Of a DNA stretch of 64,000 nt, positions 3,307 through 36,157 are shown in pieces. Each line of letters begins with the position of its first letter. Position 1 is the stretch's first letter. The stretch is taken from assembly GCA_963702845.1 (NCBI GenBank), contig OY969763.1:1696001-1760000 (forward strand), in the 5' to 3' direction. A program made the translations under genes and the position numbers. The notes under the pieces are model-generated. The model was not told where the DNA came from and ran no database searches. It saw nothing but the letters and a program-made list of their open reading frames with translations. Source of the DNA: an uncultured Verrucomicrobiae bacterium. Its GTDB lineage: Bacteria; Verrucomicrobiota; Verrucomicrobiia; Limisphaerales; Palsa-1400.

Positions 3307-3397
3307 GTTGAATATCGCTGCTCAGGCACGGCGCGTCGAGGGCTTCGCATGGAAAAGACAGCCAATCGCGCCGCTGCCTGAAGCAGCCTGGTTCGGC
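3307..3397 (-). repeat. attC site (degenerate R')
   Basis: Minus strand GCCGAAC-CAGGC-TGCTTCAGGCA...TGCCTGAGCAGC; R'' complements cassette start GTTCGGC (4010-4016). Confidence 0.7.
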
Positions 3398-3418
3398 TCT
3401 GGCACGGTTATACCGGTG

Positions 3419-4003
3419 CTACCTTGATATTGAAATCCGGCCGCCTTCGTAAACATGGTGCTCTATGTTATGAGGAGGGAGCGCCCCCTCGAAGTCCGCC
3501 TCTTCTCGCTCAAATTGCGGCCTAGCCAAGTCGATGACGTATTTGTAGCGTCGCTCAAGGAAGGCCGCCTCGATGGTAAGTTTGTCACCGTCAACGCTCG
3601 CAACCCGCTCGAACCAGTTTGTCTCAGTGGCTCCAATGTTAGAACCGATATGGCTGTCATGAGCCGGGAAATCCTGGACCGTTCTCGTCGCGGTGTTCGC
3701 CAGGTGAACCATTGCCTGCCCACCGTCAAAATCCTTCCCCGTGACGAACAAAATCAAATGCTTGTTGGTAATCGCCAAATAGCAAGGATCAAGCCCCCTG
3801 ACATCTTTGAAATCGCGCCCCCAAATGGTCAGCACCTCAGTATCGGTAGAACCATGGACGTTGAATAGCTGGATGGTGCTGTGCTCGGTGATCTGAACGT
3901 GGTCATCGCGATACCGCTGGCGTGTGGAATGGGAGCAGCCGAACAACGTCACAGAAAGCGCCGCAGCTACGGTCGCTAGCAAATATCGAGGCGCGATGAT
4001 CAT
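3419..4003 (-). CDS. Cassette-borne lipoprotein
   Basis: LFGC lipobox; bounded by GTTCGGC and attC. Confidence 0.75.
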   Translation of the reverse strand: MIIAPRYLLATVAAALSVTLFGCSHSTRQRYRDDHVQITEHSTIQLFNVHGSTDTEVLTIWGRDFKDVRGLDPCYLAITNKHLILFVTGKDFDGGQAMVHLANTATRTVQDFPAHDSHIGSNIGATETNWFERVASVDGDKLTIEAAFLERRYKYVIDLARPQFEREEADFEGALPPHNIEHHVYEGGRISISR

Positions 4004-4013
4004 CTCGTTGCCG

Positions 4014-4087
4014 AACTATGATTATGCGACGGGGTGCAGCTATAATTTTGATATCCGAACGGTTGGTTCATATTGGTTGAGGAGACC
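4014..4087 (-). repeat. attI-like module family A, copy 1
   Basis: 58-bp core ATGAACCAACCGTTCG...GTCGCATAATCATAGTT directly before the cassette start. Confidence 0.75.
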
Positions 4088-4102
4088 TGGTTAGGCGACA
4101 TA

Positions 4103-4660
4103 TCAGTACACCAAGTTTGCGCCAAAACGGGGAATCTTCCCGTTCTTAACTTCATCTCTCCATCGGTCCAGTTCGACGTTGCCATCCTTCCAAAAGTTCC
4201 GACAGAGTTCAAAATATTCTAGAACTACGTCTCGCTCACCTTTATCGAGAAGGTCCTTGGCGAGAGTCATGTTCGGGCCAAAGCTGTCCATGGTCGGAGA
4301 ACCCGGGCTCTTTCCAGCCGCAAGTAAGTACTTTTTGGCTTCAGCTTTCTTACCGTCGCGCAATGCGAGGCGTCCAAGCACTAAATTTCCATCTTGGATA
4401 GCGTTTCCATAATTCCAGTCACTACGATAATTGGGAGCAGATGAAAGCAATTCTATCGCGTATTTGTTGGCATCTTCGAATTTCGCGTTGTTAAAGCTTT
4501 CTTTGGCAGCTTTATCCAACGCGTGGAATCTCTGTAGGTCCGTAGATGCCGAAGCCAGCTTCTTCGTCGCCGCATCGTATCTCTGTTGTGGTGTGGTCGC
4601 GGAACAGGCTCCGATGCCAATTAACAAGAAGCCCAAGAGGAATACTGTAAAGTATCGCAT
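4103..4660 (-). CDS. Cassette-borne TPR-like lipoprotein
   Basis: IGAC lipobox, helical repeats; GTTAGGC start (4671-4677) matches R'' GCCTAAC (4090-4096). Confidence 0.75.
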   Translation of the reverse strand: MRYFTVFLLGFLLIGIGACSATTPQQRYDAATKKLASASTDLQRFHALDKAAKESFNNAKFEDANKYAIELLSSAPNYRSDWNYGNAIQDGNLVLGRLALRDGKKAEAKKYLLAAGKSPGSPTMDSFGPNMTLAKDLLDKGERDVVLEYFELCRNFWKDGNVELDRWRDEVKNGKIPRFGANLVY

Positions 4661-4674
4661 AAGTGATGCCGCCT

Positions 4675-4776
4675 AACTATGAATATGCGACGGGGTGTCG
4701 CGGTAATTTTGATATACGAACGGCCGGTTCATACCTGATTTTCCGAATGATGTCGTAGGTGCAGACAAAAGCAAGC
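4675..4776 (-). repeat. attI-like module family A, copy 2 (upstream variant B)
   Basis: 58-bp core plus upstream CTTGCTTTTGTCTGCACC..GACATC shared with copy 4. Confidence 0.75.
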
Positions 4777-4957
4777 GGTGAGGGCGGTTCGAACTCTGGG
4801 CAGTGTTTTTTAGCTCCTTCCACGTTCGCTTATTGCCCCAAGCGATTGTGAATGATTTTTTTGGGGTGTCACCCCGTATGGCTGCGCGGTATTTTGTGGA
4901 GGGTGATTGTTGTCTTTGACAGAATATTGTCGGTAAGAATACCGTCCAACTTGTCAT

Positions 4958-5545: not shown

Positions 5546-5617
5546 GGCGAATGAGCATTCGACCTTGAACGTCGAGCTTTGAGCTGCAAGTCTGTCAGTC
5601 TTTTCGCGCTGAGGCCC

Positions 5618-6423: not shown

Positions 6424-6524
6424 TGCTAACGCAAAAACTCAGCACGGCGGGCCACTGACTCAATGATTGTAAAGGCAGCGTCAACCCGCTCCCGCAACGC
6501 GGGGCTGGAGCGCTCTGGTTAGAC
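6424..6524 (-). repeat. attC site
   Basis: GTCTAAC-CAGAG-CGCTCCAGC...GCTGAG-TTTTTGC-GTTAGCA; R'' matches GTTAGAC at 6861-6867. Confidence 0.85.
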
Positions 6525-6531
6525 CACGTGC

Positions 6532-6860: not shown

Positions 6861-6951
6861 GTCTAACCGTGACGCTCAGCCGCGCGGCGCCAACCGCGTA
6901 CGAAATGCGTGAGGGAAGCAATCGCCGCGTCGGCTGGAGTAAAAGTTAGAT
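6861..6951 (-). repeat. attC site
   Basis: ATCTAAC..CTCCAGCCGACGCG...CGCGGCTGAGCGTCACG-GTTAGAC; R'' matches GTTAGAT at 7308-7314. Confidence 0.85.
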
Positions 6952-7307: not shown

Positions 7308-7412
7308 ATCTAACGATCAAGATGACCGATGATGAGGGGCGCGCCACCGGCTCCGGATTGGAACACGCGGCTGCCCGCGCTCCTCCTCATACGGTCCATC
7401 GCAATGTTGGCC
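7308..7412 (-). repeat. attC site
   Basis: GGCCAAC...GATGGACCG...CGGTCATC...GTTAGAT; R'' matches GTTGGCC at 7909-7915. Confidence 0.75.
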
Positions 7413-7912: not shown

Positions 7913-7970
7913 AACTATGATTTTGCGACGGGGTGTCGGTATTATTTTGATAGACGAACAGTCGGTTCAT
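7913..7970 (-). repeat. attI-like module family A, copy 3 (core only)
   Basis: Diverged 58-bp core ending ATCATAGTT|GGCC. Confidence 0.7.
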
Positions 7971-8002
7971 AAGCGCGTTTGCTCGATGACTGGGAAATGG
8001 GA

Positions 8003-8378: not shown

Positions 8379-8482
8379 TCTTAACTCAATTCAGATCAGC
8401 GGCGACGGGCCACTGACTCAAGGAGTGTAAACGCAGCGTCAACCCGCTCCCGCAAAGCGGGGCTGGAGCGGCCTGGTTAGGT
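8379..8482 (-). repeat. attC site
   Basis: Near-copy of 6424-6524; R'' ACCTAAC matches GTTAGGT at 8841-8847. Confidence 0.8.
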
Positions 8483-8844: not shown

Positions 8845-8945
8845 AACAATGTTTATGCGACGGGGTGTCGCGGTCATTTTGATATACGAACAGTCGGTTC
8901 ATATCTGAGTTTCCAAAGGATGTCTCTGGTGCAGACAAAAGCAAG
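8845..8945 (-). repeat. attI-like module family A, copy 4 (upstream variant B)
   Basis: 58-bp core plus variant-B upstream segment. Confidence 0.75.
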
Positions 8946-10227: not shown

Positions 10228-10984
10228 TATTCGAACGAGTTAACTCCTTCGTCGCCGCTCCGCGAAAGTGACACTCCGTTTTGGGTGGTTTGGTCCCGGC
10301 ACCGAAGGGCGTGTTGCCGAATCTGGAATTGGTGACGATGGACGCAACCCCAATTGGGGTAGAGGTGTTTTTTGGTCGTGTTACCCAGGGTAGCCCAGCA
10401 CTTTGCCGTGCGCCTTCAAAGTATTGGGCAACCTTGGGCTAAGTGATGGAACCGCGTTGCGGTTCTGGTGGGCGAAGAAGTGGAAAATGGGATCCCCTGT
10501 GCATTTGACCGCAAATTGACCAGGTCAAAACGCGTGTTTCTTCTTTGTTTTCAACGGGTTGTCGCGTACGGGGTGTTTACATTTTGACCGCTGTTCCCGG
10601 GCTTGGGTTTCCTCTTTAACGTGGGATTGTGAATAATTTTACCGAAAAATCTTGGGGCGACACCCCGTAACTGTCCAACCCCCCTCTGTAAAATGGACGG
10701 CATGAAAACAAATGTCTCACGACAACCAGAGTGGTGGGCGGCACTGCCCGAATCGGAAAAAGCAGTCCTGCGGAATGTAGTTAACGCAATTCGAACACTA
10801 AGAAGAAGCAGGTCCCCGCAGATAGCCGGCGCGGCTCAGAAATGGGATGCGAGCATCTGCTGCTTTATCAAGACGCGGTTAGTAAATCGGCGCGGCAAAC
10901 GCTCATTTGACTCGTCGGCGCCCGCCTCCTCGGCCGGTCCGGCTTCTGCCTCCGGCAAACTCCTTTCGCCGGTTCCCAACCGGC

Positions 10985-11425
10985 TCAAGTCCCACGCAAC
11001 AATCGGGCGTAACCAACAAGGTGGCGCTGGAGCTCGGCATTAACTGGACATTGACTGCGTAACCACTCTATCGCGTCCTCAACATCTTTTGTAAGACGGA
11101 CACCATCATGTCGGCCAACTTTTCCAGCTTCTTCAGCGGTGCCGTGAATTTTTATCTCTACCAGATTAGCGCCGAGGATGTTGGCGGCTCTCGCTGGATG
11201 AAGCGCGTCGGTGCAGCGGGCGGCGATGATCTCAGCCTGGGCCTTGGAGTCGGCGGCGAAGACTTTGAGTATGGCGACGAAATGCTGATTGCTGAAATCC
11301 TGGGATTCGCCGCTCAACACGCGGCTGATGTAGCTGCGGGAGACTCCGGACTGGCGGGAAATGTCGGAATGGGTAATGCCGCGTTCGTCGCTGATGCGTT
11401 GCAGGGTGGTTCCGAGAAAGCTCAT
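10985..11425 (-). CDS. XRE-family HTH repressor
   Basis: RGITHSDISRQSGVSRSYISRVLSGE; divergent from the early operon. Confidence 0.85.
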   Translation of the reverse strand: MSFLGTTLQRISDERGITHSDISRQSGVSRSYISRVLSGESQDFSNQHFVAILKVFAADSKAQAEIIAARCTDALHPARAANILGANLVEIKIHGTAEEAGKVGRHDGVRLTKDVEDAIEWLRSQCPVNAELQRHLVGYARLLRGT

Positions 11426-11768
11426 TTAGAAGTTGAGGGTTTTTGGTTGAGTGTTGAGTGCCGATCGGCGGCGACATTTTTTTGCATTGCGATGCGCAGT
11501 TTATGCGCCTGTGACGCAATTGCAACGCTTGGGCTGACAACAATTTGCGCGCAAACGGAAGCAACGAGCCGCAAATCACAAAAAATTCGCGTCAACATTT
11601 TTTCAAAACTTTTTTCATGCGCGAAAAGTGTAGCGCCTTTCGCTTACTTGCGCGTCTTTTCGCGAATCTTCGCAAGGGGTTTTCAGCAGCAAAAAAGAAA
11701 ATTCAAAACGTGCGCTATAACTGGCTCGTTCGCCAAAACAGTAGCGCGATAGGTGAAGCAATTTAATT

Positions 11769-12005
11769 ATGAAAACGGAAAGTCAAACACAAGTGGATAA
11801 CGGGACCGCTCCTGCTGAGCCTTATATCAATAAGCAGGAACTCGCCAAACGAATGAACAAAAAGCTGCGCACGGTGGATAACTGGATGCGGCGCGGAATG
11901 ATTCCCTACTACAAGATCGGCCATTCCGTGCTCTTCAAGTGGAGCGAAGTGGATTCGCACCTCGGATCTACCTGCCGGAAAACGGGGTTTTCATCCACCT
12001 GTTGA
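11769..12005 (+). CDS. Excisionase/AlpA-like HTH protein
   Basis: YINKQELAKRM..RTVDNWMRRGMIPYYKIGHSVLF. Confidence 0.85.
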   Translation: MKTESQTQVDNGTAPAEPYINKQELAKRMNKKLRTVDNWMRRGMIPYYKIGHSVLFKWSEVDSHLGSTCRKTGFSSTC

Positions 12006-12016
12006 AAACAAAGCAG

Positions 12017-12457
12017 ATGAACTCAAGAAACAAAGGCAAACGCGGAGAGCGATTGTGGCGCGATGAATTGCGCGCCAACGGTTACACGGCGCGGCGCGGC
12101 CAGCAATTCTCCGGCTCGCCTGATTCGCCCGATGTGATTTGCGATGCCTTGCCGTGGATTCACTTCGAAGTCAAAGCGGTTGAGAAGTTGAACATCGAAG
12201 ACGCGATGGATCAAGCGCGGCGGGACGCGGTGGCACCGAAAGCCCAATCAAAAACTCCAATCGTCGCGCACAAGCGCAGCTTCCGCGCGTGGCTCGTCAC
12301 GATGGATTCCGAAACATTTTTCAAATTTCTGCGCGGCGAGCTTCCGCTCGACGGCACGGCGCTTCGCGCAAAAAGCGACGCGTCGGAACCCCGCGCAGAT
12401 CAACAAACCCCAAATCCTGAAAGGAAAGATAATACCAATGAAGATCAAACAGTCTGA
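12017..12457 (+). CDS. Phage Holliday-junction-resolvase-like PD-(D/E)XK protein
   Basis: MNSRNKGKRGER...SPDVI...HFEVK. Confidence 0.75.
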   Translation: MNSRNKGKRGERLWRDELRANGYTARRGQQFSGSPDSPDVICDALPWIHFEVKAVEKLNIEDAMDQARRDAVAPKAQSKTPIVAHKRSFRAWLVTMDSETFFKFLRGELPLDGTALRAKSDASEPRADQQTPNPERKDNTNEDQTV

Positions 12458-13199
12458 AAATTACGAACCGTGCCCCGAATTTACGGGTCGCGCGGTTTGT
12501 GTAGATGTAACCCCGCTGCGCAAGCAGCAAAGCGAATTCGGCGAACGCAACGTGTTCAAGGTCGTTTTCGAGGTCGACAAGGAGCGCGAGGACAAAACGC
12601 GCTTCGCGGTCTGGTCCAAGAATTTCACGCCGACGCTGAATGAGAAGGCGAACTTCCGCAAATTCCTGCGCGGCTGGTTCGGTCGCGATCTCACGCAAGC
12701 TGAGTTGAGCGATTTCGATACGGAAACGCTGATTGGCAAGACCGCGAACCTCGTCGTCCTGCATGAGCACAAGGACGGCAAGGTTTACTCGAACATAATC
12801 GCCTGCACTCCTGATAAGAGCGGCAATCCGCTGCAACCCTCCGGGACGTTCGTCCGCAGGAAGGACCGCACTGATGAACCCGAGCAATCGGAGCCTGCTA
12901 GCAATGGCGCGAACGGTAGCAGCGCTGGCGGCGCGTATCGCCGTTCCCAGCAACCTGCGAACAACGGTGCGTCCGTTGATCACTCTTCGGTAAAGGTACA
13001 CGTCGGGCGCTGCGCCGGTTTGGAGTTGCGCGACTTGAGCGCTGAACAAGTGAGCGCGCTCGCTGATAAATGGCTGCCGGGCGCGAAAGCGGCACCGAAG
13101 CAAACCGCCGATGACAAGCGGCTGATTGCTGCACTCGCATGGTTCGTTGATCAAATCGAGGCCGCGACGGTCGCTGCCAAGGACGACCTCACCTATTAA
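12438..13199 (+). CDS. Phage replication-region protein (possible ssDNA-binding)
   Basis: Operon position; TLNEKANFRKFL..W.GR motif typical of phage early genes. Confidence 0.55.
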   Translation: MKIKQSENYEPCPEFTGRAVCVDVTPLRKQQSEFGERNVFKVVFEVDKEREDKTRFAVWSKNFTPTLNEKANFRKFLRGWFGRDLTQAELSDFDTETLIGKTANLVVLHEHKDGKVYSNIIACTPDKSGNPLQPSGTFVRRKDRTDEPEQSEPASNGANGSSAGGAYRRSQQPANNGASVDHSSVKVHVGRCAGLELRDLSAEQVSALADKWLPGAKAAPKQTADDKRLIAALAWFVDQIEAATVAAKDDLTY

Positions 13200-13266
13200 C
13201 CCATGACGCCAAGGTCATGCGGGGTCAGTCACACGACTGGCCCCGCGTTCTTGGGGAGGAATTTTT

Positions 13267-14103
13267 ATGACACTTATTGAACGACAAGCGCCGAGCCACT
13301 GGTATTTGCAGGATGGCCGGCCATTCCATCAAATCGCAAAGAAGGACGGCAGCGGCAACCGCGCCGTCACGCTCGCCGATGCACGCAAGGTGCTCGCGCT
13401 TCCGAGCGTCACAAATATTTTGGGCGTGCTCGCCAAACCTGGGCTCGATGCTTGGAAGATCGAGCAAGGCATCATGGCGGCGCTGACGCTGCCGCGTAAT
13501 GCAGACGAACCGCTCGATACGTTTGCTCGTCGTGTCGTCACTGACATGAGCGAGCAGGTTGAGAAGGCGGCTGATTTTGGCACGGCGATTCATGCGGCGT
13601 GCGAGGCTTACGCAATCAACAAGGAACTTCCCACCGACCAAGCGGTGCTTGGATTCATCCGGGATTGGGTGCGGTGGTTCGATGAGAATGTGGAGCGCAT
13701 TGATTGCGTTGAGCAAGTCGTGGTGCATCCAACGGCGCTTTATGCCGGTCGCGTCGATATGATCGCCAAGATCAAGGATCTCGGCTGGTGTGTTGTTGAT
13801 TTCAAAACGCAGAAGGTGAAACGCTCGGCCAAGGGCGAGCCAAAGGCTGCGTTCTACGAAGCTTGGCCGCTCCAGCTCGCGGCATATCGGCAAGCGGCGC
13901 TTGCATCCAGTGGAAAGTACCTCACGGGACTAGTCTCAGTTGTAATCGACAGCGTCGAACCGGGTCCGGTTCACGTCAAAGTCTGGGCCGACAACATCGA
14001 CTACATGAAGGTGTTCAGCGCGGCGTATATGGCGTGGAGATACATCAAGTGTTACTCGCCGAACGAGACGGCGTTCAACTCGCCGAATCCTGAACTCAAT
14101 TAA
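13267..14103 (+). CDS. PD-(D/E)XK exonuclease (RecB/Cas4-like, phage)
   Basis: LPSVTNIL; GTAIH; YAGRVD..VVDFKT; QLAAY. Confidence 0.85.
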   Translation: MTLIERQAPSHWYLQDGRPFHQIAKKDGSGNRAVTLADARKVLALPSVTNILGVLAKPGLDAWKIEQGIMAALTLPRNADEPLDTFARRVVTDMSEQVEKAADFGTAIHAACEAYAINKELPTDQAVLGFIRDWVRWFDENVERIDCVEQVVVHPTALYAGRVDMIAKIKDLGWCVVDFKTQKVKRSAKGEPKAAFYEAWPLQLAAYRQAALASSGKYLTGLVSVVIDSVEPGPVHVKVWADNIDYMKVFSAAYMAWRYIKCYSPNETAFNSPNPELN

Positions 14104-14504
14104 CGACGTAAAAACGTTGAGAGGAATCTGCGAATGCAACTGACCTTTTTATCTGATGCACCGAGTGCGTCGTACAAACGTCGGCCCGGCGCCAGCAATG
14201 GCGTCAGGTCGTCGTCTGGAAGTTCTTTGATCAATGGTTCCTCGGAAATCGTGCGCCACGGAAGCGTTGTCATCGCATCGTGGAAAGATTCTGACGCAGC
14301 ACGCTGCTCCGGGGTGAGTGCCGCAATCGCTTCTGAGTCACGCAAACAGTCGAACAAATCCCAAAGCCGGAAAAAAATGGCCGAATCTTTCGTGCCTGCG
14401 GGCCACCCCCTCCGATTCACGTCACGCGGGTGTAGCTCAAGAAGAAAGCTTAACGGAAGCCGCGGTGCGTGCATGACCGCTTCTTTTTGTTCCTTTGAGA
14501 GCAT
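14100..14504 (-). CDS. Hypothetical protein antisense within the early operon
   Basis: Fills the gap between nuclease and helicase. Confidence 0.5.
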   Translation of the reverse strand: MLSKEQKEAVMHAPRLPLSFLLELHPRDVNRRGWPAGTKDSAIFFRLWDLFDCLRDSEAIAALTPEQRAASESFHDAMTTLPWRTISEEPLIKELPDDDLTPLLAPGRRLYDALGASDKKVSCIRRFLSTFLRR

Positions 14505-14572
14505 ACCTGCGGGAAGTATTCGCGTTGGATTGCCGCGCGCAACAACAAACCTTTCGGCCCTCTCCTGACTTT

Positions 14573-15883: not shown

Positions 15884-16230
15884 TTACAGCGAAGAACAAA
15901 GATATAAAATGGTTCAGGAGTTTGCAGTCCGACGAGCAGGGACGGCCAAAATGGGTGTTCGTGGGCATCGGTCCAAACGGTGAGTTTTGGGTAAAGCAGT
16001 GTGAGGTTCCTTATCTCGGAGATGATGTCTGGGACCAAGCGGAAGATCACTCGCAGCCACTGGTGCTGATTCAGCGCGGGAATGTTTACGTGAATGTGGC
16101 GTTCGCAGCCGAGCTCACGACGAGCGAGTTCACCAGAGGGGAAATAACAGGTTTTATCGCGACGATGATGAAAGTTCTGCAACCGGAGCGTGATTCACAT
16201 GAGGCGATTCGGTTTTACGAGAGGAACTGA
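15880..16230 (+). CDS. Hypothetical phage protein
   Basis: ATGA overlap with helicase stop. Confidence 0.55.
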   Translation: MITAKNKDIKWFRSLQSDEQGRPKWVFVGIGPNGEFWVKQCEVPYLGDDVWDQAEDHSQPLVLIQRGNVYVNVAFAAELTTSEFTRGEITGFIATMMKVLQPERDSHEAIRFYERN

Positions 16231-16484
16231 CCGAATGAACCACGAGGTGAAAACTCGGTTACGCGATTACAGCCATGCATCGAACGCTGTGCGCGTTTGT
16301 TTCATACGCGGAAATAATAATTCGATTGATTTGATTGTCGCGGTTGCGACGGAGCTTATGAAACACCGACGGCGAACAACGCGTCGACAGGGTAAACGAG
16401 ATGACACGGTTCGGTTCGTCAAAGTCGACGTCCTGAACTTCGCAAACGAAGTTTTCATTACTGTCAAACAGTGAGTAGTCGGCC

Positions 16485-19072: not shown

Positions 19073-19661
19073 ACAGCAACCCCGTGAGTCGGATAAAGCG
19101 TTTGCGGCGTTCAGTTTGTATCTGAGCGATGGTCCGCAACGGTCCGCCGAGTCGGTAGCAAAGAAGTTAGCAAAGAGTGCACACCTTGTGCGGAGGTGGG
19201 CGAGCAAGTTCGATTGGGTGGCGCGGGTGAAGGCGCATGCGGCGCATTTGGCGATTGTCGAACGGGAAGCGACGGAGGCTTTGACTCGCGGCAAGGCGGC
19301 GGAATGGGTCAGCCGACAAGAGGCGCATCGCGAGGAGGAATGGAAGATGCGCGGGGAGTTGATCGAGCTCGCGCGTGAGGCCATTGCGCGATGGAAGAAA
19401 GCGCCGCAACGGTGTGGCACGCTGGAAGGCATCGCGCGACTGCTGGATTTGGCGAGCAAGCTGGGGCGGTTGTCGTCGGGCATGGCGACGGATCGAACGG
19501 AAGTGAGCGGCGAACTGACGGCGACGCTGAAGCTCGAGTTCGTCCAGGCACTGGATGAGGTCTACGGGACGGCAGTGCCGTCGGCCATTCTGTCCCCTGC
19601 TCCCGCGATCGACGCCGAAGTTGTTACGGAACCGAAAGCGTTGCCGGAGGCGAAGAAATGA
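19056..19661 (+). CDS. Probable terminase small subunit
   Basis: ESDKAFAAF..RWASKFDWVARV HTH directly upstream of terL. Confidence 0.7.
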   Translation: MPLPFEQQPRESDKAFAAFSLYLSDGPQRSAESVAKKLAKSAHLVRRWASKFDWVARVKAHAAHLAIVEREATEALTRGKAAEWVSRQEAHREEEWKMRGELIELAREAIARWKKAPQRCGTLEGIARLLDLASKLGRLSSGMATDRTEVSGELTATLKLEFVQALDEVYGTAVPSAILSPAPAIDAEVVTEPKALPEAKK

Positions 19662-21052
19662 GTTCGGTTAAGGCGTATCTGATGGATGGGCGCAAGGCTG
19701 GGTGTCCGCGCGACCAGATGGAGAATTTTCTGAGGGCAGAGATTCACCTGCAAGCGCGGCAGTTGGCGGCGTCAGCGGCCGCGCGGTTTTGTGACCGGCG
19801 AGACGGGCCGACGGCGATCGGCTACGGCGGTGCGCGTGGCGGCGGCAAGTCGCATTGGTTGCTCGCGCAAATGGGCGCTGACGACTGTCAACGCGTGCCT
19901 GGGCTGAAGTGTTTGCTTCTGCGCAAGGTCGGTAAGGCAAACGTGGAGCATTTCGAAGATCTACGGCAACGGCTGTTTTCAAAACTGCCGCATGAATTTT
20001 CGGCGTATCGAGGCGTGCTCACGTTCGCGAATGGTTCGCGCATCATCGCCGGGCACTTTCAAAACGAGAAGGACATCGACGCGTATCTCGGTCTCGAATA
20101 CGACGTGATTGGGATCGAAGAAGCGACGACGTTGTCGTCGCGAAAGTATCAGGACATTTCGACGTGCTGCCGCACGAGCAAGCCGAACTGGCGGCCGAGG
20201 ATTTATTCGACGACGAATCCCGGAGGCGTCGGGCATCAATGGTATAAGGCAAAATACATCGTTCCGTTTCGCGACGGAAAGGAAACGGAGACGCGATTCA
20301 TTGCGGCGCGCGTGGCGGACAATCGTTACAACAATCCTGAGTATGTGCGGGTTTTGGAAGGGCTGCCAGCATGGCAACGGCGGCTTTGGTTGGATGGCGA
20401 TTGGGATGTGGCGGCGGGACAGTTCTTCACGACGTTCCGGCGCGAGGTGCATGTCATTGACGATTTCGATGATAAGCGGGCGCGGGAATGGTTCTGTGCG
20501 CTGGATTATGGTTTTAACCATTACACGGTCGTTTATCTCGGCTGCACGGATGGCGACGGGAATATGTTCGTTGTGGATGAACATGCGGAACGGCTTTGGT
20601 TGCCGCAACGGCATGCACTTGCGATCAAGGCGATGGTGCAACGGCGGACAATCGGAAATCGCAAATTGGAGGTTTCAGATTTGAAACGGTTCGTCGCCGG
20701 CGCGGATGTGTTCGGTCGACAGAGCGACGGCACCACGGTCGCGGCGCAGTATGCGCGCGAAGGAATCACGCTGCGTTGTGCGAACACGGATCGTGTGAAT
20801 GGTTGGGCTGAGATTTTGCATCGTCTGGGGGATGCCGACGCGAAGATCAAGCCGACTCTTTTTATTCATCGGCGATGCGCGCGGCTGATTGATTGTCTGC
20901 CGGCGCTGCAACGCGATCCGAATCGGCCGGAGGATGTGATGAAGGTGGATGCGGATGAAGGAGTCGGAGGCGATGACACCGCCGATGCGTTGCGTTACCT
21001 GGTCGCGACGAAGTCGCGCGTGGTTGTTCAACGGAAGTTGAGGGGGCTCTGA
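19658..21052 (+). CDS. terL: Terminase large subunit
   Basis: YGGARGGGKS; IGIEEAT; TTNPGGVGH; LDGDWD; LDYG; DDTADALRY. Confidence 0.93.
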   Translation: MSSVKAYLMDGRKAGCPRDQMENFLRAEIHLQARQLAASAAARFCDRRDGPTAIGYGGARGGGKSHWLLAQMGADDCQRVPGLKCLLLRKVGKANVEHFEDLRQRLFSKLPHEFSAYRGVLTFANGSRIIAGHFQNEKDIDAYLGLEYDVIGIEEATTLSSRKYQDISTCCRTSKPNWRPRIYSTTNPGGVGHQWYKAKYIVPFRDGKETETRFIAARVADNRYNNPEYVRVLEGLPAWQRRLWLDGDWDVAAGQFFTTFRREVHVIDDFDDKRAREWFCALDYGFNHYTVVYLGCTDGDGNMFVVDEHAERLWLPQRHALAIKAMVQRRTIGNRKLEVSDLKRFVAGADVFGRQSDGTTVAAQYAREGITLRCANTDRVNGWAEILHRLGDADAKIKPTLFIHRRCARLIDCLPALQRDPNRPEDVMKVDADEGVGGDDTADALRYLVATKSRVVVQRKLRGL

Positions 21053-21432: not shown

Positions 21433-21481
21433 AGCGGTTAATATACGACGATTGTTCGCATAATTCTGATAGGCGGACAAG
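21433..21481 (-). repeat. attI-like module family 2
   Basis: CTTGTCCGCCTATCAGAATTATGCGAACAATCGTCGTATATTAACC-GCT|AGCC. Confidence 0.5.
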
Positions 21482-21587
21482 ACTGTTGTGCTGAGGCAGG
21501 CGCGAAAGTGCGGAGTCCAGAGGTTGCAAATCTCTGGCGTGGATGCGAGCCTCACTGGCCCCTGGAGGCGGCGAAGATGATGTAGCG

Positions 21588-21656
21588 GATGCGTTGCGGT
21601 ATTTGGTCGCGACGAAGTCGCGGGTGGTGGTTCAACGGAAGTTGAGGGGGTTGTGA
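21588..21656 (+). pseudogene. Second copy of terL 3' end
   Basis: Encodes DALRYLVATKSRVVVQRKLRGL*, same peptide as 20984-21052. Confidence 0.85.
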
Positions 21657-21706: not shown

Positions 21707-21758
21707 CTTGTTCTCGTATCGAAAATGTGCGAACGGTTGTCAGATATAAACGTTAGGC
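21707..21758 (+). repeat. attI-like module family 2, plus strand
   Basis: CTTGTTCTCGTATCGAAAATGTGCGAACGGTTGTCAGATATAAAC-GTTAGGC ending 12 bp before the next ATG. Confidence 0.6.
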
Positions 21759-22142: not shown

Positions 22143-22324
22143 GTGCCGACTGATTGTGCACTACAGCAAATGACGGCGGGTTGTCGTTGAGTTTGGGTCG
22201 TTAAGGCGGAGTCCAGAGGTTGCAAATCTCTGGCGTGGAGGGTGCGAGCCGCACCGGCCACTGGAGGCGACGTGAGTCTCCAAAACGGATGGCTCGCGCC
22301 ACGGCGGACGCGAGGCAAAATGGG

Positions 22325-26392: not shown

Positions 26393-26488
26393 ATTTAACG
26401 ACAAGCTGAGCCGCGCCGGACCAAACACCGTGAACCGCGAAGCGGAACTGTCGGCGCAACCGGCGTTGGCTCCAGTGCTGTGTTAGGG
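26393..26488 (-). repeat. attC site
   Basis: CCCTAAC-ACAGC-ACTGGAGCC...GGCTCAG-CTTGTC-GTTAAAT. Confidence 0.85.
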
Positions 26489-26915: not shown

Positions 26916-27086
26916 AACTCTGATTATGCGACACGCTGTCGCGGTCATTTTGATATACGAACGGTTGGTTCATATTGGTTGAGGAGATTATTGTTATGCT
27001 GGCGCTGCGAATCAAGCGCAACACAACGCGCTCGCGAGCACGGCGACGACATGCCGGAGATCCGCGATTGGAAGTGGAGTGCGTAG
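26916..27086 (-). repeat. attI-like module family A, copy 5 (short xfp tail)
   Basis: Core; TTGATT-N17-AATAAT; REHGDDMPEIRDWKW fragment on + strand. Confidence 0.8.
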
Positions 27087-27158
27087 CGGCAGACCAACGA
27101 GGCGCTATTTATCAATTTAGCTCGGGAGGTTTCACACAGGCTCGCGACTTGTTAGGCG

Positions 27159-27573: not shown

Positions 27574-27624
27574 AAGAATTAATCCGCGACAACAGTTCGC
27601 ATAGTTTTAATCCGCGAACAAGGG
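27574..27624 (-). repeat. attI-like module family 2
   Basis: CCTTGTTCGCGGATTAAAACTATGCGAACTGTTGTCGCGGATTAATT. Confidence 0.6.
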
Positions 27625-27729
27625 TTTTTAGGGTCGAGGTTCAAAGTTCCGACGTTTCGTGTGGATAACGCAGCGCAGATGACAGGCGCGCAACTGACTT
27701 TGTTATTTAACCACTAACGGTGTTTGTGG

Positions 27730-28879: not shown

Positions 28880-28973
28880 GCTTAACGGCCCGGCTCAGGC
28901 AGGCCGGGACAACGGTGTGGGATTGCTAACAGACGCCCGATCCCGGCCTTGCCTGCAGCCCGGCTGGTTTTAC
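28880..28973 (-). repeat. attC site
   Basis: GTAAAAC-CAGCC-GGGCTGCAGGCAAGGCCGGGA...TCCCGGCCTGCCTGAGCC-GGGCC-GTTAAGC. Confidence 0.85.
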
Positions 28974-29339: not shown

Positions 29340-29510
29340 AACTATGATTATGCGACGAGGTGTCGCGGTAATTTTGATATACGAACGGTTGGTTCATATT
29401 GGTTGAGGAGACTATTGTTCTGCTGCCGCTGGGAATCAAGTTTAACACAACGCGCTCGCGAGCACGGCGACGACATGCCGGAGATCCGCGATTGGAAATG
29501 GAGCGGGTGA
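29340..29510 (-). repeat. attI-like module family A, copy 6 (short xfp tail)
   Basis: Core, promoter-like segment and xfp fragment. Confidence 0.8.
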
Positions 29511-29516: not shown

Positions 29517-30203
29517 TTATGGGTAGCGCTTGAACACCGGATTGGTAGTCATGCCAAACTGGTTTATGATCGGGGGAATTTTTCCGCCGACGTGTTCCTG
29601 CGAGGCGATTTCATCCACCACAATATTTTGCACCGACGTGTTGGTATTCCCTTTTAGACATTCAAACACTTCCTTACGCTGTGTGTCTCCGCGAATCGAG
29701 AGGTAGATGATCGGTGCTATGTTATCTCGTTGGGCTGGCGAGTTTATCACACGTATCCACACGAAAGGATACTCGTCGTTAACTATTCTCTCAAAGGGAG
29801 ATGGCCCCATCCAGGCTCTTGGCACCAGAATATCCTTTTCGTGCAACCACGTTGGATGGTTCAGAAGCTCAGCAATGTTGCCCAGCGTCATTCCACTGTG
29901 GAAGTGACGAGCAAACATCTGTAGAACTGCGCGACTACGATGATCCACACTATATTGAGGATTGTTAGCGATGTCGTTCCAAAACTTCGGCGGCTCGTTT
30001 GTCAAACCAGAGTCCCGAAGCAATCCCAAAGCCGAAAGCAAGTTATTCGTACTCGCATGGACGTCTGCGATCTTCTTTAGAGCGGTGTGAAATTGCCGTT
30101 CCTGAATATGGGAGTTGGTGGTCGATTGTGCTTCTTGCGGTGTAACGCACCCGCCGAGCAGCAGCAATGCACCCGATAGCAGAACCTTAAGCGCGACTTT
30201 CAT
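29517..30203 (-). CDS. Lipoprotein
   Basis: LGGC lipobox; family-2 module directly upstream. Confidence 0.7.
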   Translation of the reverse strand: MKVALKVLLSGALLLLGGCVTPQEAQSTTNSHIQERQFHTALKKIADVHASTNNLLSALGLLRDSGLTNEPPKFWNDIANNPQYSVDHRSRAVLQMFARHFHSGMTLGNIAELLNHPTWLHEKDILVPRAWMGPSPFERIVNDEYPFVWIRVINSPAQRDNIAPIIYLSIRGDTQRKEVFECLKGNTNTSVQNIVVDEIASQEHVGGKIPPIINQFGMTTNPVFKRYP

Positions 30204-30248
30204 TAACTTGCGCCAACAGTTCGCATAGTTTTAATCCGCGAACAAGGG
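30204..30248 (-). repeat. attI-like module family 2
   Basis: Near-identical to 27574-27624. Confidence 0.6.
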
Positions 30249-30360
30249 GTTTTTGAGGTTCAAGGTTCAAACTTCCGGCGCTTCGTGTGGATAACGCAGC
30301 GCAGATGACAGGCGCGCAACTGACTTTGTCTTTAAGCAGCGTTGGAATTACCAAGAGCGG

Positions 30361-30819: not shown

Positions 30820-30918
30820 GCCGAACGCTGGAACTCACACACGTCGGACCAAACGACGCTGACCGCGAAGCGGAACTGAGAGTGCCATCCGGCGTTGTGT
30901 GCAGTGATTTTGTTAGAC
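30820..30918 (-). repeat. attC site
   Basis: GTCTAAC-AAAAT-CACTGCACACAACG...CGTGTGTGAGT-TCCAGC-GTTCGGC. Confidence 0.85.
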
Positions 30919-31134: not shown

Positions 31135-31305
31135 AACAATGATTATGCGACGGGGTGTCGCGGTAATTTTGATATACGAACGGTTGGTTCATATTGGTTG
31201 AGCAGACTATTGTTCTGCTTCCGCTGCGAATCAAGCGTAACAGAACGCGCTCGCGAGCACGGCGACGACATGCCGGAGATCCGCGATTGGAAGTGGAGCG
31301 GGTAG
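31135..31305 (-). repeat. attI-like module family A, copy 7 (short xfp tail)
   Basis: Core, promoter-like segment and xfp fragment. Confidence 0.8.
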
Positions 31306-31399
31306 CTCCACACGAACAAGGCGCAATCTATCAATTTAGCTCGGGAGGTTTCACACAGGCTCGCGACTTGTTAGGCGTCAAAGCACCAGACATAAGTTC

Positions 31400-31849
31400 T
31401 TACTCATCTACACAGCGAACTGCTTCAACGACCTCTATTCGGAAACAGCGAAATGACATCCTTACACCCGCACCTGGCTCAAAACTCACAATAAGATATG
31501 GAGGCAATCTCTCACCGTTTGTGAACGTGCCGCGCTCTTGAGTGTTGATGGACAACTCAACTATCTGGTTGATGTGGTCAAAGCGATCCATCTTAAAATC
31601 ATCTACATCGTGAAAGCGCAATGTGACCAGAACATCGTGGCCAGAATGTGTAGCTCCTCGTTGCGTGGCTCCCAATACTCGAAGCTTCGCTGTCACGACA
31701 GGAAAGACATTGCGGTCATCCCAATCGCCCGGCTTCACGTCGCCGCGCCACAAGTGCAAGTCAAAAATCTCCGCATCATGGAATGACGGCCATTCGCCAA
31801 AAAACGCCGTCAGCTTTTGGCTATCTTGAACAACTGATTGGACGTGCAT
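31400..31849 (-). CDS. Cassette-borne Imm50-like immunity protein
   Basis: FFGEWPSFHDAEI...VTLRFHDV...FDHINQI. Confidence 0.7.
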   Translation of the reverse strand: MHVQSVVQDSQKLTAFFGEWPSFHDAEIFDLHLWRGDVKPGDWDDRNVFPVVTAKLRVLGATQRGATHSGHDVLVTLRFHDVDDFKMDRFDHINQIVELSINTQERGTFTNGERLPPYLIVSFEPGAGVRMSFRCFRIEVVEAVRCVDE

Positions 31850-31858
31850 GGGATTGGT

Positions 31859-31951
31859 GCTTAACAACTCAGCTCAGCGGCGGCGGGCCACTGACTCGAG
31901 GATTGTAAACGCAGCGTCCTCCCGCCGTCGGCTGGGGCGCTCTGGTTAGGC
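31859..31951 (-). repeat. attC site
   Basis: GCCTAAC-CAGAG-CGCCCCAGCCGACGGCGGG...CCCGCCGCCGCTGAGC-TGAGTT-GTTAAGC. Confidence 0.88.
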
Positions 31952-32209: not shown

Positions 32210-32296
32210 GCGCTCGGTGCAGCCTAACTATGATTATGCGACTGGGTGTCGCGGTGATTTTGATATACGAACGGTTGGTTCATATTGGTTGAGCAG

Positions 32297-32325
32297 ACTA
32301 TTGTTCTGCTGCCGCTGCGAATCAA
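32297..32325 (-). promoter_or_regulatory. Pc-like sigma70 promoter candidate (also in copies 5-7, 9, 10)
   Basis: TTGATT-N17-AATAGT pointing into the cassette. Confidence 0.55.
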
Positions 32326-32338
32326 GCGCAACAAAACG

Positions 32339-32497
32339 GATCTCTTCGCCGACGTGATCGACCGCCTGCCGCAACTGGGCGCGCGGGCCGCCTACGCCAA
32401 ACAGGCCATCCAAAACAAACTCATGAAACACAAACATTACATCCGCGAGCACGGCGACGACATGCCGGAGATCCGCGATTGGAAGTGGAGCGCGTAG
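32339..32497 (+). pseudogene. xfp: 3' fragment of phosphoketolase gene
   Basis: ADVIDRLPQLGARAAYAKQAIQNKLMKHKHYIREHGDDMPEIRDWKW* resembles the XFP C-terminus. Confidence 0.8.
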
Positions 32498-32514
32498 GGA
32501 AAGTGCGAAGCAGC

Positions 32515-32606
32515 GTCTAACGATCCAAGCTTAGCGACCCGGCCCACGGGACGCGTGGATGGCAACCGGAGCGCACCGGACGGGTTCGCTGCGTGCATGG
32601 TTAGGC
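32515..32606 (-). repeat. attC site
   Basis: GCCTAAC-CATGC-ACGCAGCGAACCCG...CGGGTCGCTAAGC-TTGGATC-GTTAGAC. Confidence 0.8.
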
Positions 32607-32883: not shown

Positions 32884-33134
32884 AGCTTTGATTATGCGAC
32901 GGGGTGTCGCGGTCATTTTGAAATACGAACGGTTGGTTCATATTGGTTGAGGAGACTATTGTTCTGCTGCCGCTGCGAATCAAGCGCAACTGGGCGCGCG
33001 GGCCGCCTACGCCAAACAGGCCATCCAAAACAAACTCACGGAACACAAACATTACATCCGCGAGCACGGCGACGACATGCCGGAGATCCGTGATTGGAAA
33101 TGGAGCGCGTAGGGAAAGTGCGAAGCAGTCTAAC
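32884..33134 (-). repeat. attI-like module family A, copy 9 (medium xfp tail; core GCT)
   Basis: Same GTTAGAC boundary as copy 8. Confidence 0.8.
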
Positions 33135-33153
33135 GCGGCGTCGTCCCACCGTC

Positions 33154-34810
33154 AGATGTCATGAAGGGTTGAGTCGCAGCCCCACACGGGGTCACGATGT
33201 TTTTGAAAATGAAAACATATTTACTCAAACCCCACATGACAGTCCCAACCCTAACCAGCGTGCCTGCCGCGGGCAAGCTGGCAAACGTGCCGCCGCGCCA
33301 GCCTTTGCCACGTCCTGTGCTGCTTGCCGGCAAACCGGCTCTCAAGCTTGGCCTGGACGTGCATCTGGAGTTCATCATGGCGGTAGCCCAACGTGATCAC
33401 GCTTCACCCCAAGCGCCACGCAAATTCAGCCGTGAGCAACTCATCGCCCAGGTTCAGAAGTGGACCAGCGAAGGCCTGCAAGTTTTCTGCGTGCAGGAAA
33501 GCTGTGGGTTCGGCTTCGTGCTCCATCGCGAACTGGTCGCCGCCGGTGCGCAAAGTTTTTTGATCACGCCGATTGCCCTCAACGGCCAGCGCAAGACCGA
33601 CAAGCTGGACGCGCGCGCTCTTTGCCTGCGCCTCTCTCGCTGGGTTGATGGCAACATCAACGAACTTGCACCCATCCGCATTCCTTCGGACAAAGAGCAG
33701 CGCCAGCGCGAAGGCACGCGACGAAGACAGTTCCTCAACAAAGCCATTCGCATGCTCGCCAATCGCGGTCACGGCCAAGCCGCCGAATACAGCCACGTCA
33801 AACTGCCCCATCGCTGGTGGGGAGCGCGCAACTGGAAAAAACTTTCCACCCTCGATCCGTGGCTGCTCAGTGTTCTCGAAAAGCTCCGCGAGGTCCTCGT
33901 CGCCATGGAGACACAACGGCAGGAACTGGAAGAGGAACTGATTGCGCGGGTCAAAGAACAACCACGGCCCAAGGGCCTTGGCGAGATCACTCTTGTGACA
34001 CTGGAAGGCGAAGTGTGCGACTGGCAGCGCTTCCACAATCGCAAACAGATTGGCAGCTACACCGGATGTTGCCCGGGCGAACACAGTTCAGGAGGCAAAC
34101 GGCGCGTCGGCAGCATCGATCGCATGGGCAACGGACGAGTCAGAGCGATCCTGGTGGAAGCGGTCTGGCGTTTTCTGATGTGGCAACCGGGGTGGAAGGC
34201 CGCACTTAAAATGAAAACCAAACTTGCCGCCGGCACGGCCATGAAGAAGAAAACTGTCATTGCCCTTGCCCGGCAACTGGCCGTGGACCTCTGGCGCTGG
34301 CGAACCGGCCGTTGCACCATGGCAGACCTCGGCTGGGTCGGCGTGTGAACCACATTTAATTTTTTCGTGAGTAGAACCTCCAGAGTTAAGAGCGTGAAAC
34401 AATTTGCGATCGGGCGAGTCCAGTCCGTAGCTTCAGCTGGTGAACCTTGCGTTCATCCGTCCGTTAGAAGGGGCGGACTCCCCGGTCGCCGCAGTCAGGC
34501 AAGTAAGACACAGTGGGCGTTGAGTCTTATCTCAACTGTCCGGATAGGAGCTGGTGCGGGACAAACTCCCGACACACAAAACGCGGCGACACCGATGCAG
34601 CAAACTTCACGCAACCTGCTTTGAGAGAAATAAGAAAGGAACTTTGAAGAGGAACAGATAAGCGGAGACTCGAGAAGAACAACAGGTGCGGATTGAACCA
34701 ATGTCCAACCGCCTGCCGCGCGCGACTGCGCTTCGTTCCACTGCGCTCCGCGCGATCAACCCCAAAAAAACTATCATCGACGCACACTACGTATTGACAA
34801 ACCTCATAGG
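33154..34810 (+). mobile_element. IS110-family, IS1111-type insertion sequence inserted in an attC
   Basis: Flanks rejoin to CCCACCGTC|CGCTGGAGCGCTCTGGTTAG; imperfect subterminal IRs 7 and 3 bp from the ends; about 460-bp noncoding right end. Confidence 0.85.
33197..34348 (+). CDS. IS110-family DEDD transposase/recombinase
   Basis: LGLDVH; QESCGFG; KTDKLDA; GCCPGEHSSGG; ALARQL. Confidence 0.93.
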   Translation: MFLKMKTYLLKPHMTVPTLTSVPAAGKLANVPPRQPLPRPVLLAGKPALKLGLDVHLEFIMAVAQRDHASPQAPRKFSREQLIAQVQKWTSEGLQVFCVQESCGFGFVLHRELVAAGAQSFLITPIALNGQRKTDKLDARALCLRLSRWVDGNINELAPIRIPSDKEQRQREGTRRRQFLNKAIRMLANRGHGQAAEYSHVKLPHRWWGARNWKKLSTLDPWLLSVLEKLREVLVAMETQRQELEEELIARVKEQPRPKGLGEITLVTLEGEVCDWQRFHNRKQIGSYTGCCPGEHSSGGKRRVGSIDRMGNGRVRAILVEAVWRFLMWQPGWKAALKMKTKLAAGTAMKKKTVIALARQLAVDLWRWRTGRCTMADLGWVGV

Positions 34811-34826
34811 CGCTGGAGCGCTCTGG

Positions 34827-35165
34827 TTAGTTTTCATCATCTGGATACTGCTTTTGCAAAAAGCAGCAGGTCAGTTGAGCAAGTACAACAGTAATACCTG
34901 CATATACCCAGCCAAATATCACCAGAGCAAAAACCGCCGGGCCTTCGGGGACCCATGACCAAACCTCGCGGGCCAGGTTGCGACTGAATGCAGCGCAAAT
35001 AAGGGGGATGCCGAGAGACCAGAGAGCAAATGTCACAATCAGAAGACCCCAACACAGAAAAAAGGCCCACTTTACAGAACCGCCACGAACGATACGCCGG
35101 AACGGGATTATGCCAGCGATGATGGCTGGTGCGTAAGCGAAAATGATCTGAGCAACAGTCTTCAT
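34827..35165 (-). CDS. Cassette-borne three-TM protein
   Basis: Stop within R'' AACTAAC; cassette start ATTAGTT. Confidence 0.7.
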   Translation of the reverse strand: MKTVAQIIFAYAPAIIAGIIPFRRIVRGGSVKWAFFLCWGLLIVTFALWSLGIPLICAAFSRNLAREVWSWVPEGPAVFALVIFGWVYAGITVVLAQLTCCFLQKQYPDDEN

Positions 35166-35179
35166 CAGCTACGACAACT

Positions 35180-35408
35180 AATAATGATTATGCGACGGGG
35201 TGTCGCGGTCATTTTGATATACGAACGGTTGGTTCATATTGGTTGAGGAGACTATTGTTCTGCTGCCGCTGCGAATCAAGCGCAACTGGGCGCGCGGGCC
35301 GCCTACGCCAAACAGGCCATCCAAAACAAACTCATGGAACACAAACATTACATCCGCGAGCACGGCGACGACATGCCGGAGATCCGCGATTGGAAGTGGA
35401 GTGCATAG
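35180..35408 (-). repeat. attI-like module family A, copy 10 (medium xfp tail; core ATT)
   Basis: Near-identical to copy 9. Confidence 0.8.
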
Positions 35409-35807
35409 CGCAGGTTTGTATGCGCGGGCATCATCGAGAGCAGAGGCAGGTGACGGGAACCAACGGCCAAAACTGGTTAGCGGAACAGGTACCGACAGAG
35501 GTTGATTACCCATCGGTTTCTTGGACCCGGATGACGTTCAAGACGCCACGGGTCGAAGGCACGCTCGATATTGTTTCAGCGAGAGCTCACGTGTTGATTC
35601 ATTAGCGATGCAGAATCAAAGTTCAACGACCTCAGTCGCGGGCGGAAAATGTGGCGGGTTCAAAAAAGCACGGGTGGGCATTCCGGAATCGGTATCCGGA
35701 GCTTGGGCGCGACGTGTCCTTCCTTCGTTCGTTTGTACAGATCCCTCCGTTCAATTGCACAGCGGCTCCGTACCTGTTGTACGGCGGCTCTGTAAGATAT
35801 CCCTACC

Positions 35808-36095
35808 TTATGTTCTCTTAAGGAATGAAACCTGATTCGCCTTCGCGATGTCGCCGGTTCGGAGTCGTGTAATCAACTTCGTCATTTCTGAATCTTGAAG
35901 CTCGCGGTATCCGGGGTCCTTATCTCTGATCTCCTCGTCGGCAATGTAATGATGCAAGTCGGCAAACAGATCCTTAAGTTCAGGCATCTTTAACGCCGCG
36001 AGATTATGGATCTCATCGCAAGCATCCTGACCTCCAATCTCGCCTTTCTGTAACCGGGATAGGAAGAGGCAAAGTTGTTCTATCTCGTGATTCAT
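35808..36095 (-). CDS. Small acidic protein (immunity-like, tentative)
   Basis: LHHYIADEEIRDKDPGYRELQ; family-2 module upstream. Confidence 0.6.
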   Translation of the reverse strand: MNHEIEQLCLFLSRLQKGEIGGQDACDEIHNLAALKMPELKDLFADLHHYIADEEIRDKDPGYRELQDSEMTKLITRLRTGDIAKANQVSFLKRT

Positions 36096-36106
36096 CGTTT
36101 ATACCC

Positions 36107-36157
36107 AGCAATTAATCTGCGCCAACAGTTCGCATATTTTTAATCGGCGAACAAGGG
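36107..36157 (-). repeat. attI-like module family 2
   Basis: CCTTGTTCGCCGATTAAAAATATGCGAACTGTTGGCGCAGATTAATT-GCT. Confidence 0.6.

Follow-up and report, generated by a model that had tools for sequence, protein, structure and literature searches.

In a 64,000-nucleotide stretch of contig OY969763.1 from an uncultured Verrucomicrobiae bacterium (assembly GCA_963702845.1, positions 1,696,001 to 1,760,000), here called the window, a short unit recurs at the junctions of integron gene cassettes. We consider its copies to be, probably, mobile attI-type cassettes that arose at the gene xfp and were spread by the integron integrase IntI, in a genome that is now without intI; this reading is drawn from sequence comparison. 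Integron models assume a single attI beside intI. A first-pass annotation had described ten copies of a 58-bp unit in the window and had proposed that the attI platform, together with its promoter Pc, was amplified, each copy heading its own small array and being served by an integrase in trans. The observation behind that proposal is real and holds, and the copies are better described as the 3′ sites of inserted attI-type cassettes lying inside larger arrays.

The genome holding the window is a single contig of 6.03 Mb. The 58-mer as originally typed matched five window sites with at most three mismatches (none expected from 100 shuffles), and two families from a repeat search of the window (D1 and D2) jointly span all ten reported sites. 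With a profile of the 66-nt core, here called type A, nhmmer found 30 matches in the genome, every one with E ≤ 2.8e-15, and ten of them fall in the window, all on the minus strand and where the annotation had placed them (Table 1). The cores are 63–66 nt long and consist of two imperfect palindromes followed by an R box (GTTRRRY). As had been claimed, similarity stops at the GTT: the bases beyond it differ from copy to copy, and the edge of similarity coincides with the crossover point between G and TT (written G/TT below), the GTT itself being retained in 26/30 copies. An open reading frame (ORF) of at least 40 codons, opening with ATG, lies 3′ of all 30 copies and starts 7–25 nt past the G (7–24 nt in the ten window copies). 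The reverse complement of GTTNNNN, that is, the R″ box, was found exactly at the end of this ORF in 16/30 copies and with one mismatch in 6/30 more, where the chance of an exact 7-mer within a 40-nt window is ~0.002; the box often supplies the TAA stop of the ORF. The window copies divide into five exact and five one-mismatch cases, in agreement with the complementary box reported at the far end of the next gene. Since a one-mismatch scan that also admitted GTG and TTG starts was too noisy, exact matches or ATG starts were used. The annotated span 3307–36157 is not one array, as ~9–21 kb consists of phage replication and terminase genes.

The 58-bp unit does not qualify as an attC. When three copies were folded as DNA, two small local hairpins formed and no end-to-end stem, in both the minimum-energy and the centroid structure (z −2.3 to +1.05), and the copies thus lack the R″-L″/L′-R′ inverted repeats, folding end to end with extrahelical bases, by which an attC is recognized. 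We also built an attC covariance model, R1, from 13 aligned sites that follow cassettes in this genome. Its alignment has 87.7% of cells paired, against 30–36% in slid-partner controls, and compensatory changes in 17/22 pairs. On the window's minus strand R1 recognized ten attC sites, of which three had played no part in training, while it matched no type A module, nor any module of the second family described below, at E ≤ 1 in the window. As an independent control, R1 detected ten attC sites adjoining intI in five relatives, and therefore the arrays are genuine arrays of integron cassettes, while the unit is a site of another kind. Both the absence of end-to-end palindromy and the presence of proper attC sites between other cassettes were thus borne out. 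The ten R1 sites lie at 3.3–8.5 and 26.4–32.6 kb with no integrase near them, and so make up attC clusters that have no integron integrase (CALINs, at least two clustered attC sites). No Rfam family reached its gathering threshold for the unit. A strict ungapped attC scan of our own missed most attC sites and was dropped for the covariance model. Two 66-nt sites running from GCCTAAC to GTTSGTS (31311–31376 and 27092–27157, minus strand) precede two attI-type cassettes; they gave no R1 match and may be short attC sites.

To place the unit among integron sites, we surveyed 61 genomes (60 relatives and this one) for intI with the TIGR02249 model (cut-off 265 bits). An intI above the cut-off occurs in 16/61 genomes, and in 4/30 within the same family. 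One of these genomes, G048, belongs to another family of the same order; its IntI scores 275.9 bits, an attC follows its first cassette, and its attI occupies the ~75 nt that separate the intI ATG from CCTAAC, the junction with the first cassette. The type A core, read in the intI sense, aligns to this attI without gaps over 48 nt, with a score of 46–56 against 14–15 ± 2.4–2.8 for shuffles, none of 2000 of which reached it; the reverse-complement control scored 11–15. Core and G048 attI share one layout, namely CCTAAC, a palindrome around CGAC-N-GGGTGTCG, TTTTGATAT and a second palindrome. These data support the attI-like identity that the annotation had proposed, and the copy beside an intI, which it had suggested looking for in relatives, has its counterpart in G048. 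No type A copy in the present genome lies between intI and a first cassette, the position that the G048 homologue does hold. The exact two-site motif of the core occurs 12 times in this genome and once among 185,579 species genomes, in a record titled as a Limisphaerales metagenome-assembled genome; two pattern scans of metagenomes for the motif gave nothing, nor did a 115-nt type A DNA query in the 60 relatives.

The genome also has a second attI-like family. Type B (repeat D6) is ~55 nt long, ends in ATTAATT followed by the crossover box GTTRRRY, and resembles the intI-adjacent attI sites of family-level relatives. Five copies lie in the window; genome-wide, nhmmer gave 44 matches, of which 36 have E < 1e-8, and several multi-copy left contexts are seen. 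Well-preserved copies scored 26–40 against 8/8 relatives, compared with ~14 ± 2.4 for shuffles (0/1000 reached the score); the degenerate window copy at 27628 was not significant on its own. Homologues of type B sit between intI and the first cassette in three relatives (G025, G027, G015), and beside 5′ remnants of intI at six further loci. The motif ATTAATTGTTRRRY is found 0–2 times per genome in 59/60 relatives (four times in the remaining one) and eight times here, and in the relatives it adjoins an IntI N-terminal remnant in 6/8 motif-bearing loci examined. Among the 36 strong type B copies GTT is kept in 21, and an exact R″ follows the first ORF in 7 of those 21. A type B DNA query of the 60 relatives gave one weak match in each of two same-genus genomes (67–73% complete). 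With 30 type A and 36–44 type B copies, the genome has ~66–74 attI-type junctions in all, belonging to two families; the type A and strong type B sites fall into 24 clusters. Some of the junctions are located within at least five related prophages. Set against the 0–2 motif matches of 59/60 relatives, these numbers confirm the proposed amplification. Several relatives keep an attI with only the first 30–130 codons of intI (loci L061–L066, in G030, G025, G011, G016, G021 and G015), and truncated intI platforms are thus common in the family.

What travels with the core is the sequence before it. A flank of ~50 nt upstream is common to 23/30 type A copies, most of which also have a fragment of xfp, while no two copies agree in the 350 nt further downstream, attC-like stretches excepted; the core therefore moves with its upstream and not its downstream sequence, which does not support the idea that each copy heads an array of its own. 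The full unit, 285 nt at 32226–32510 (minus strand), runs from TTAGAC through an antisense 3′ fragment of xfp and the ~50-nt flank to an attI core with a final G. The xfp 3′ end, in antisense, takes up the first 171 nt of the unit, and the plus strand at 32285–32497 matches positions 153–202 of Pfam XFP_C (E 3.7e-11). Full-length copies start at the R′ box (GTTAGAC or GTTAAAC) of an attC, at 32515–32606 in the window, directly upstream of the 285-nt unit and ending in GTTAGAC, and at 4311369–4311461 in the genome (R1 80.5 bits). When the 285-nt unit was compared with the genome by blastn, a common variant without query positions 67–173 (q67–173) was seen. These are units bounded by G/TT whose 3′ site is derived from attI, as in the cassettes known as ΔattI-type.

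The xfp locus suggests where the unit came from. An intact xfp gene (Pfam XFP and XFP_C) lies at genome positions 2198664–2201087, and beside it one passes from an attI core through a single cassette and an attC with the end GTTAGAC to the 3′ end of xfp. The xfp piece of the unit matches the sequence just past the last attC of the array at 2.185–2.198 Mb, abutting the intact gene. The unit is a circular permutation of this junction, which makes that array its likely source. We infer that an attI, away from intI, was captured into short, mostly non-coding units that end in attI instead of attC, and that the unit was likely born at xfp by excision between the last attC of the array and the nearby attI. 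IntI-mediated recombination at G/TT would then have put it at cassette junctions of many arrays, prophage-borne ones included. On this account the repeated unit would be the crossover-proximal core of an integron attI, the duplex docking site that IntI joins to attC at G/TT, and each inserted copy would leave an attI-type junction before whichever cassette follows, so that the R″ complementarity noticed at first would be explained. There are also hybrid sites, in which an attC R″ is followed 3–18 nt on by the attI module (window 4096–4014; genome 4286405). A remnant of the intI 5′ end left of the core was sought against the intI starts of four relatives and rejected, as 1/28 tests at ≤ 2/500 shuffles is the chance level.

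Several observations weigh against this account. The homology of type A to attI comes mainly from one genome, G048, and against the family-level attI sites (G025, G027, G018) it is marginal, with 0–31/2000 shuffles reaching the score. The xfp piece and the flank do not meet at a clean G/TT, and at least four left contexts are seen for the core, for which a single attI-cassette origin does not account; one event is therefore too simple a history. We found neither a pair of filled and empty sites nor a paralogous cassette both with and without the module upstream. GTT has been lost in 4/30 type A copies (GCT at window 32886, ATT at window 35181, AGT, and one truncated), 15/36 strong type B crossovers are no longer GTT, and 8/30 type A copies have no R″ match near the first ORF. 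Lastly, the genome has no integron integrase, its best TIGR02249 match scoring 85.9 bits against the cut-off of 265, and tblastn with the IntI of six relatives returned only two Xer-like genes (28–32% identity) and no remnant. The PF00589 matches in the genome are two Xer-like and several phage-type recombinases.

The leading alternative is a working distributed integron in which each attI is an active entry point with its own Pc and a plasmid, a phage or an unassembled replicon provides the integrase in trans. The attI identity is supported, 26/30 crossovers are intact with a distinct cassette after each copy, and type A copies are 91–98% identical, so that their spread must have been recent. 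A plasmid carrying intI may be missing from the assembly, and about half of the CALINs known to Cury et al. (2016, PMC4889954) are in genomes without intI. The annotation was right that no intI is nearby, for there is none in the window, and nowhere in the genome does an intI with an integron-specific domain stand by an attI and cassettes as in a complete integron; an integrase in trans finds no backing in a single-contig genome without an integron integrase gene or remnant. The proposed Pc platform with independently expressed first positions also fared poorly: promoter-like sites are not enriched (9 against 7.8 ± 3.3 expected), and 9/10 window copies are below threshold. The one copy that passes the promoter scan does so in its upstream flank, in which TTGATT-17 nt-AATAGT is conserved. 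Among the sequencing runs listed for the stretch, none was of RNA, and four DNA runs covered small shares of it. Since there is no intI, several crossovers are mutated and Pc is unsupported, the system is probably a relic or dependent on an outside integrase, and we regard a distributed integron at work as unlikely.

Much less probable is an identity as a regulatory or promoter-operator module, or as one end of another mobile element such as a miniature inverted-repeat transposable element (MITE) or insertion sequence (IS), spread by a non-integron recombinase such as the ~450-aa tyrosine recombinases of the prophages. The two palindromes of the core could be operators, many copies lie in prophages that encode tyrosine recombinases of their own, and the several left contexts would fit such a history. 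The boundaries, however, are integron cassette junctions with a complementary R″ in the next cassette, the core is homologous to an intI-adjacent site, and Rfam offers no match; on reading the copies we saw no target-site duplication or terminal inverted repeats, although no dedicated search was made. A LexA or Cheo-box reading of the palindromes is not favoured, as the spacing does not fit. Least probable of all is an unusual attC or other single-strand recombination site, conserved as in sedentary chromosomal integrons, whose attC sites are described as homogeneous in one report (PMC12901181): the unit does occupy cassette boundaries, ends in GTTRRRY and starts with TATGAAC, of which TATGA can pair with TCATA just before GTT, but this 5-nt match is its sole terminal pairing, and the lack of an end-to-end stem, of L″/L′ pairing and of any R1 match, together with a homologue at the attI position beside intI in G048, speaks against it.

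The attI-type junctions are also found in a prophage setting. The window contains a prophage-like element at 11108–21052 and 36453–45249, in which 15.4 kb of cassettes separate the terminase gene from the portal gene; its genes include a helix-turn-helix (HTH) gene, a PD-(D/E)XK nuclease, a PIF1 helicase, a primase-polymerase, the terminase, the portal and a DnaT-like gene. Terminase and portal enclose the array at 21–36 kb, which runs on the strand opposite to theirs and ends against the terminase 3′ end. Full-length terminase paralogues number seven across the genome; five elements have terminase as well as portal, and in 4/5 of these elements a type B site stands 146–290 nt upstream of the portal gene and divergent from it. 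Ten terminase 3′ fragments are dispersed in the genome, several beside type B sites, and they parallel the xfp fragment of type A. Among 11 IMG/VR loci with a related portal gene, nine have a gap of 3.3–6.5 kb between terminase and portal, and no R1 attC, site of type A or B, or IntI was detected; among the loci examined, the phage family therefore does not have integron content as a general trait.

Table 1. Sites, cassettes and flanking genes of the window. Positions count from its first nucleotide; paired boxes are R/R″; q denotes positions of the 285-nt unit.
Feature	Position	Strand	Evidence and remarks
attC, last of the low-coordinate array	3307..3397	-	R1 71.5 bits; R′ degenerate (ATT)
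Type A core	4014..4078	-	GTTCGGC/GCCGAAC exact; 3 nt after R″ (GCCTAAC) of preceding cassette
Type A core, second left-flank lineage (ii)	4675..4738	-	GTTAGGC/GCCTAAC exact
attC, outside training set	6424..6524	-	R1 35.7 bits
attC	6861..6951	-	R1 69.2 bits
attC	7308..7412	-	R1 44.5 bits
Type A core	7913..7975	-	GTTGGCC/GGCCAAC exact; right after ORF 8374-8003, no intervening attC (attC-ORF-attI)
attC, outside training set	8379..8482	-	R1 25.4 bits, E 3e-4
Type A core, lineage (ii), head of 3.3-8.9 kb array	8845..8907	-	GTTAGGT/ACCTAAC exact
Terminase large subunit	19658..21052	+	Pfam Terminase_6N E 2.4e-4, below curated cut-off
Type B, weaker	21436..21482	-	nhmmer E 5.6e-7
Type B	21707..21750	+	D11, nhmmer; then GTTAGGC and ORF 21771-22142
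attC	26393..26488	-	R1 66.2 bits
attI-type cassette, deletion variant (xfp q14-67 + q173-285)	26916..27086	-	blastn, nhmmer; core 26980-26916; R″ one mismatch
Type B	27574..27628	-	D6, nhmmer
attC	28880..28973	-	R1 74.2 bits
attI-type cassette, deletion variant	29340..29508	-	blastn, nhmmer; core 29404-29340; R″ one mismatch
Type B	30202..30252	-	D6, nhmmer
attC	30820..30918	-	R1 75.8 bits
attI-type cassette, deletion variant	31135..31305	-	blastn, nhmmer; core 31199-31135; R″ one mismatch
attC, outside training set	31859..31951	-	R1 58.7 bits
Type A core, reference copy	32226..32290	-	nhmmer E 3.7e-20; crossover G/TT 32228-32226; then ORF 32209-31946 and R″ GCCTAAC at 31951, exact
attC	32515..32606	-	R1 63.8 bits; end-to-end stem; ends GTTAGAC
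attI-type cassette	32886..33125	-	blastn; core 32948-32886; crossover mutated (GCT); R″ one mismatch
IS110-family transposase ORF	33197-34348	+	Pfam Transposase_20 E 4.6e-16
attI-type cassette	35181..35408	-	blastn; core 35244-35181; crossover mutated (ATT); R″ one mismatch
Type B, 290 nt upstream of and divergent from portal gene	36107..36162	-	nhmmer E 6.1e-18; crossover degenerate (GCT)
Portal gene (DUF4055), flanks head of 21-36 kb array	36453..38069	+	Pfam DUF4055 E 1.1e-39

Several further features of the arrays were noted. The IS110-family element at ~33150–34810 (plus strand, ends approximate) is inserted within an attC; it has six genome copies of 95–100% identity, several inside cassette arrays, and recalls the attC-targeting IS1111 group. 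The cassette at 31400–31867 (minus strand) encodes an Imm50 immunity-protein domain (E 1.8e-10), while Pfam matches are lacking for almost all of the remaining cassette ORFs, many of which have a lipoprotein-like signal start. A regulator with WYL and WCX domains (2135–3304, plus strand) borders the end of the array at 3.3–8.9 kb, and a 95%-identical paralogue stands beside the arrays at 4.31 Mb.

Near the type B sites, the last 93 nt of the terminase gene (20960–21052) are duplicated 600 nt downstream at 21564–21656 with 83% identity, and this duplicated fragment precedes the type B site at 21707–21750. A perfect 34-nt direct repeat with a hairpin (CCAGAGGTTGCAAATCTCTGG), at 21510–21543 and 22206–22239, brackets a plus-strand cassette; it gave no tRNA call, and at other places in the genome the hairpin stands before four type B sites. 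A 69-nt repeat, D5, occurs at 821–889, 1344–1412, 10240–10308 and 36197–36265 with the minus-strand end GGAGTTARC, and the attC model did not match it. Its copy at 36197 lies 35 nt before a type B site, a composite that recurs at two other loci.

Precedents for attI-type cassettes exist. ΔattI-type or unusual cassettes are known from mobile integrons of classes 1 and 2 (Partridge et al., 2009, cited by Gonzales Machuca et al., 2026, PMC12901181), and the latter report describes their excision and insertion by IntI1. As here, those units have a 3′ site derived from attI, an attC-X-attI or attI-X-attI structure and a G/TT crossover, and one case has the complete 65-bp attI1 at both sides (PMC12901181). 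Most known cases contain 14–18 nt of attI and a resistance gene and occur once per integron, beside intI (PMC12901181), whereas here we find the whole 63–66-nt core, a non-coding gene fragment, 30 and 36–44 copies of the two types in 24 clusters, and no intI. In the Shewanella prophage M16-3, a second copy of the lineage's own attI, with no intI beside it, likewise heads a prophage array flanked by terminase and tail genes; that case has two attI copies, with an intact intI in the same prophage (Qi et al., 2023, PMC9892861). The present genome differs in its dozens of copies, two attI types, absence of intI, and attI sites inside arrays as well as at their heads.

The arrays are also like CALINs in being attC-bounded and without a nearby intI, and 95% of CALINs have no intI pseudogene nearby (Cury et al., 2016, PMC4889954). 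By the definitions in that paper, CALINs rest on attC only, and IntegronFinder recognizes attI by exact match to classes 1–3 (PMC4889954); junctions like these would therefore have gone unreported. There is a likeness, too, to the platforms of Limisphaerales relatives (G048, G025, G027, G013, G015), which share the attI family, the attC family found by R1 and the layout of GTTAGGC, short leader and ATG. Those platforms have the attI motif once or twice, adjoining intI or its 5′ remnant, unlike the many copies here. Insertion at secondary attG sites is a possible route to the 3′ ends of xfp and terminase, although the attG work, as summarized in the preprint, concerns attC cassettes entering non-att sites and not the spread of attI (bioRxiv 10.1101/2022.09.11.507474). 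A limited literature search found no earlier description of an attI present in tens of amplified copies. What is new is the scale and the phage setting.

Given that no IntI is encoded and that part of the crossovers carry mutations, the sites most likely form a recent relic, or else can be used only with an integrase that comes from outside. More tentatively, and we hold this to be rather doubtful, an attI cassette of ~110–290 nt would seed docking sites across the arrays and a prophage family, always upstream of the portal gene, and so turn integrons with one entry into a genome-wide, multi-entry network open to any integrase of the right clade that enters. If this were true, phages and chromosomes could share one cassette pool without carrying intI. 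To our knowledge, integron mechanics have not been studied in Verrucomicrobiota. The analysis provides two concrete attI sequences and a cognate IntI clade in relatives (the G048-type and G025-type IntI are 77% identical to each other), which can be tested in an attI × attC assay. If the sites are usable now, or were so recently, the docking site attI can itself be spread in cassette form, one array can be entered at many points, and accessory-gene hot spots of phages can become integron platforms run by a host or foreign IntI.

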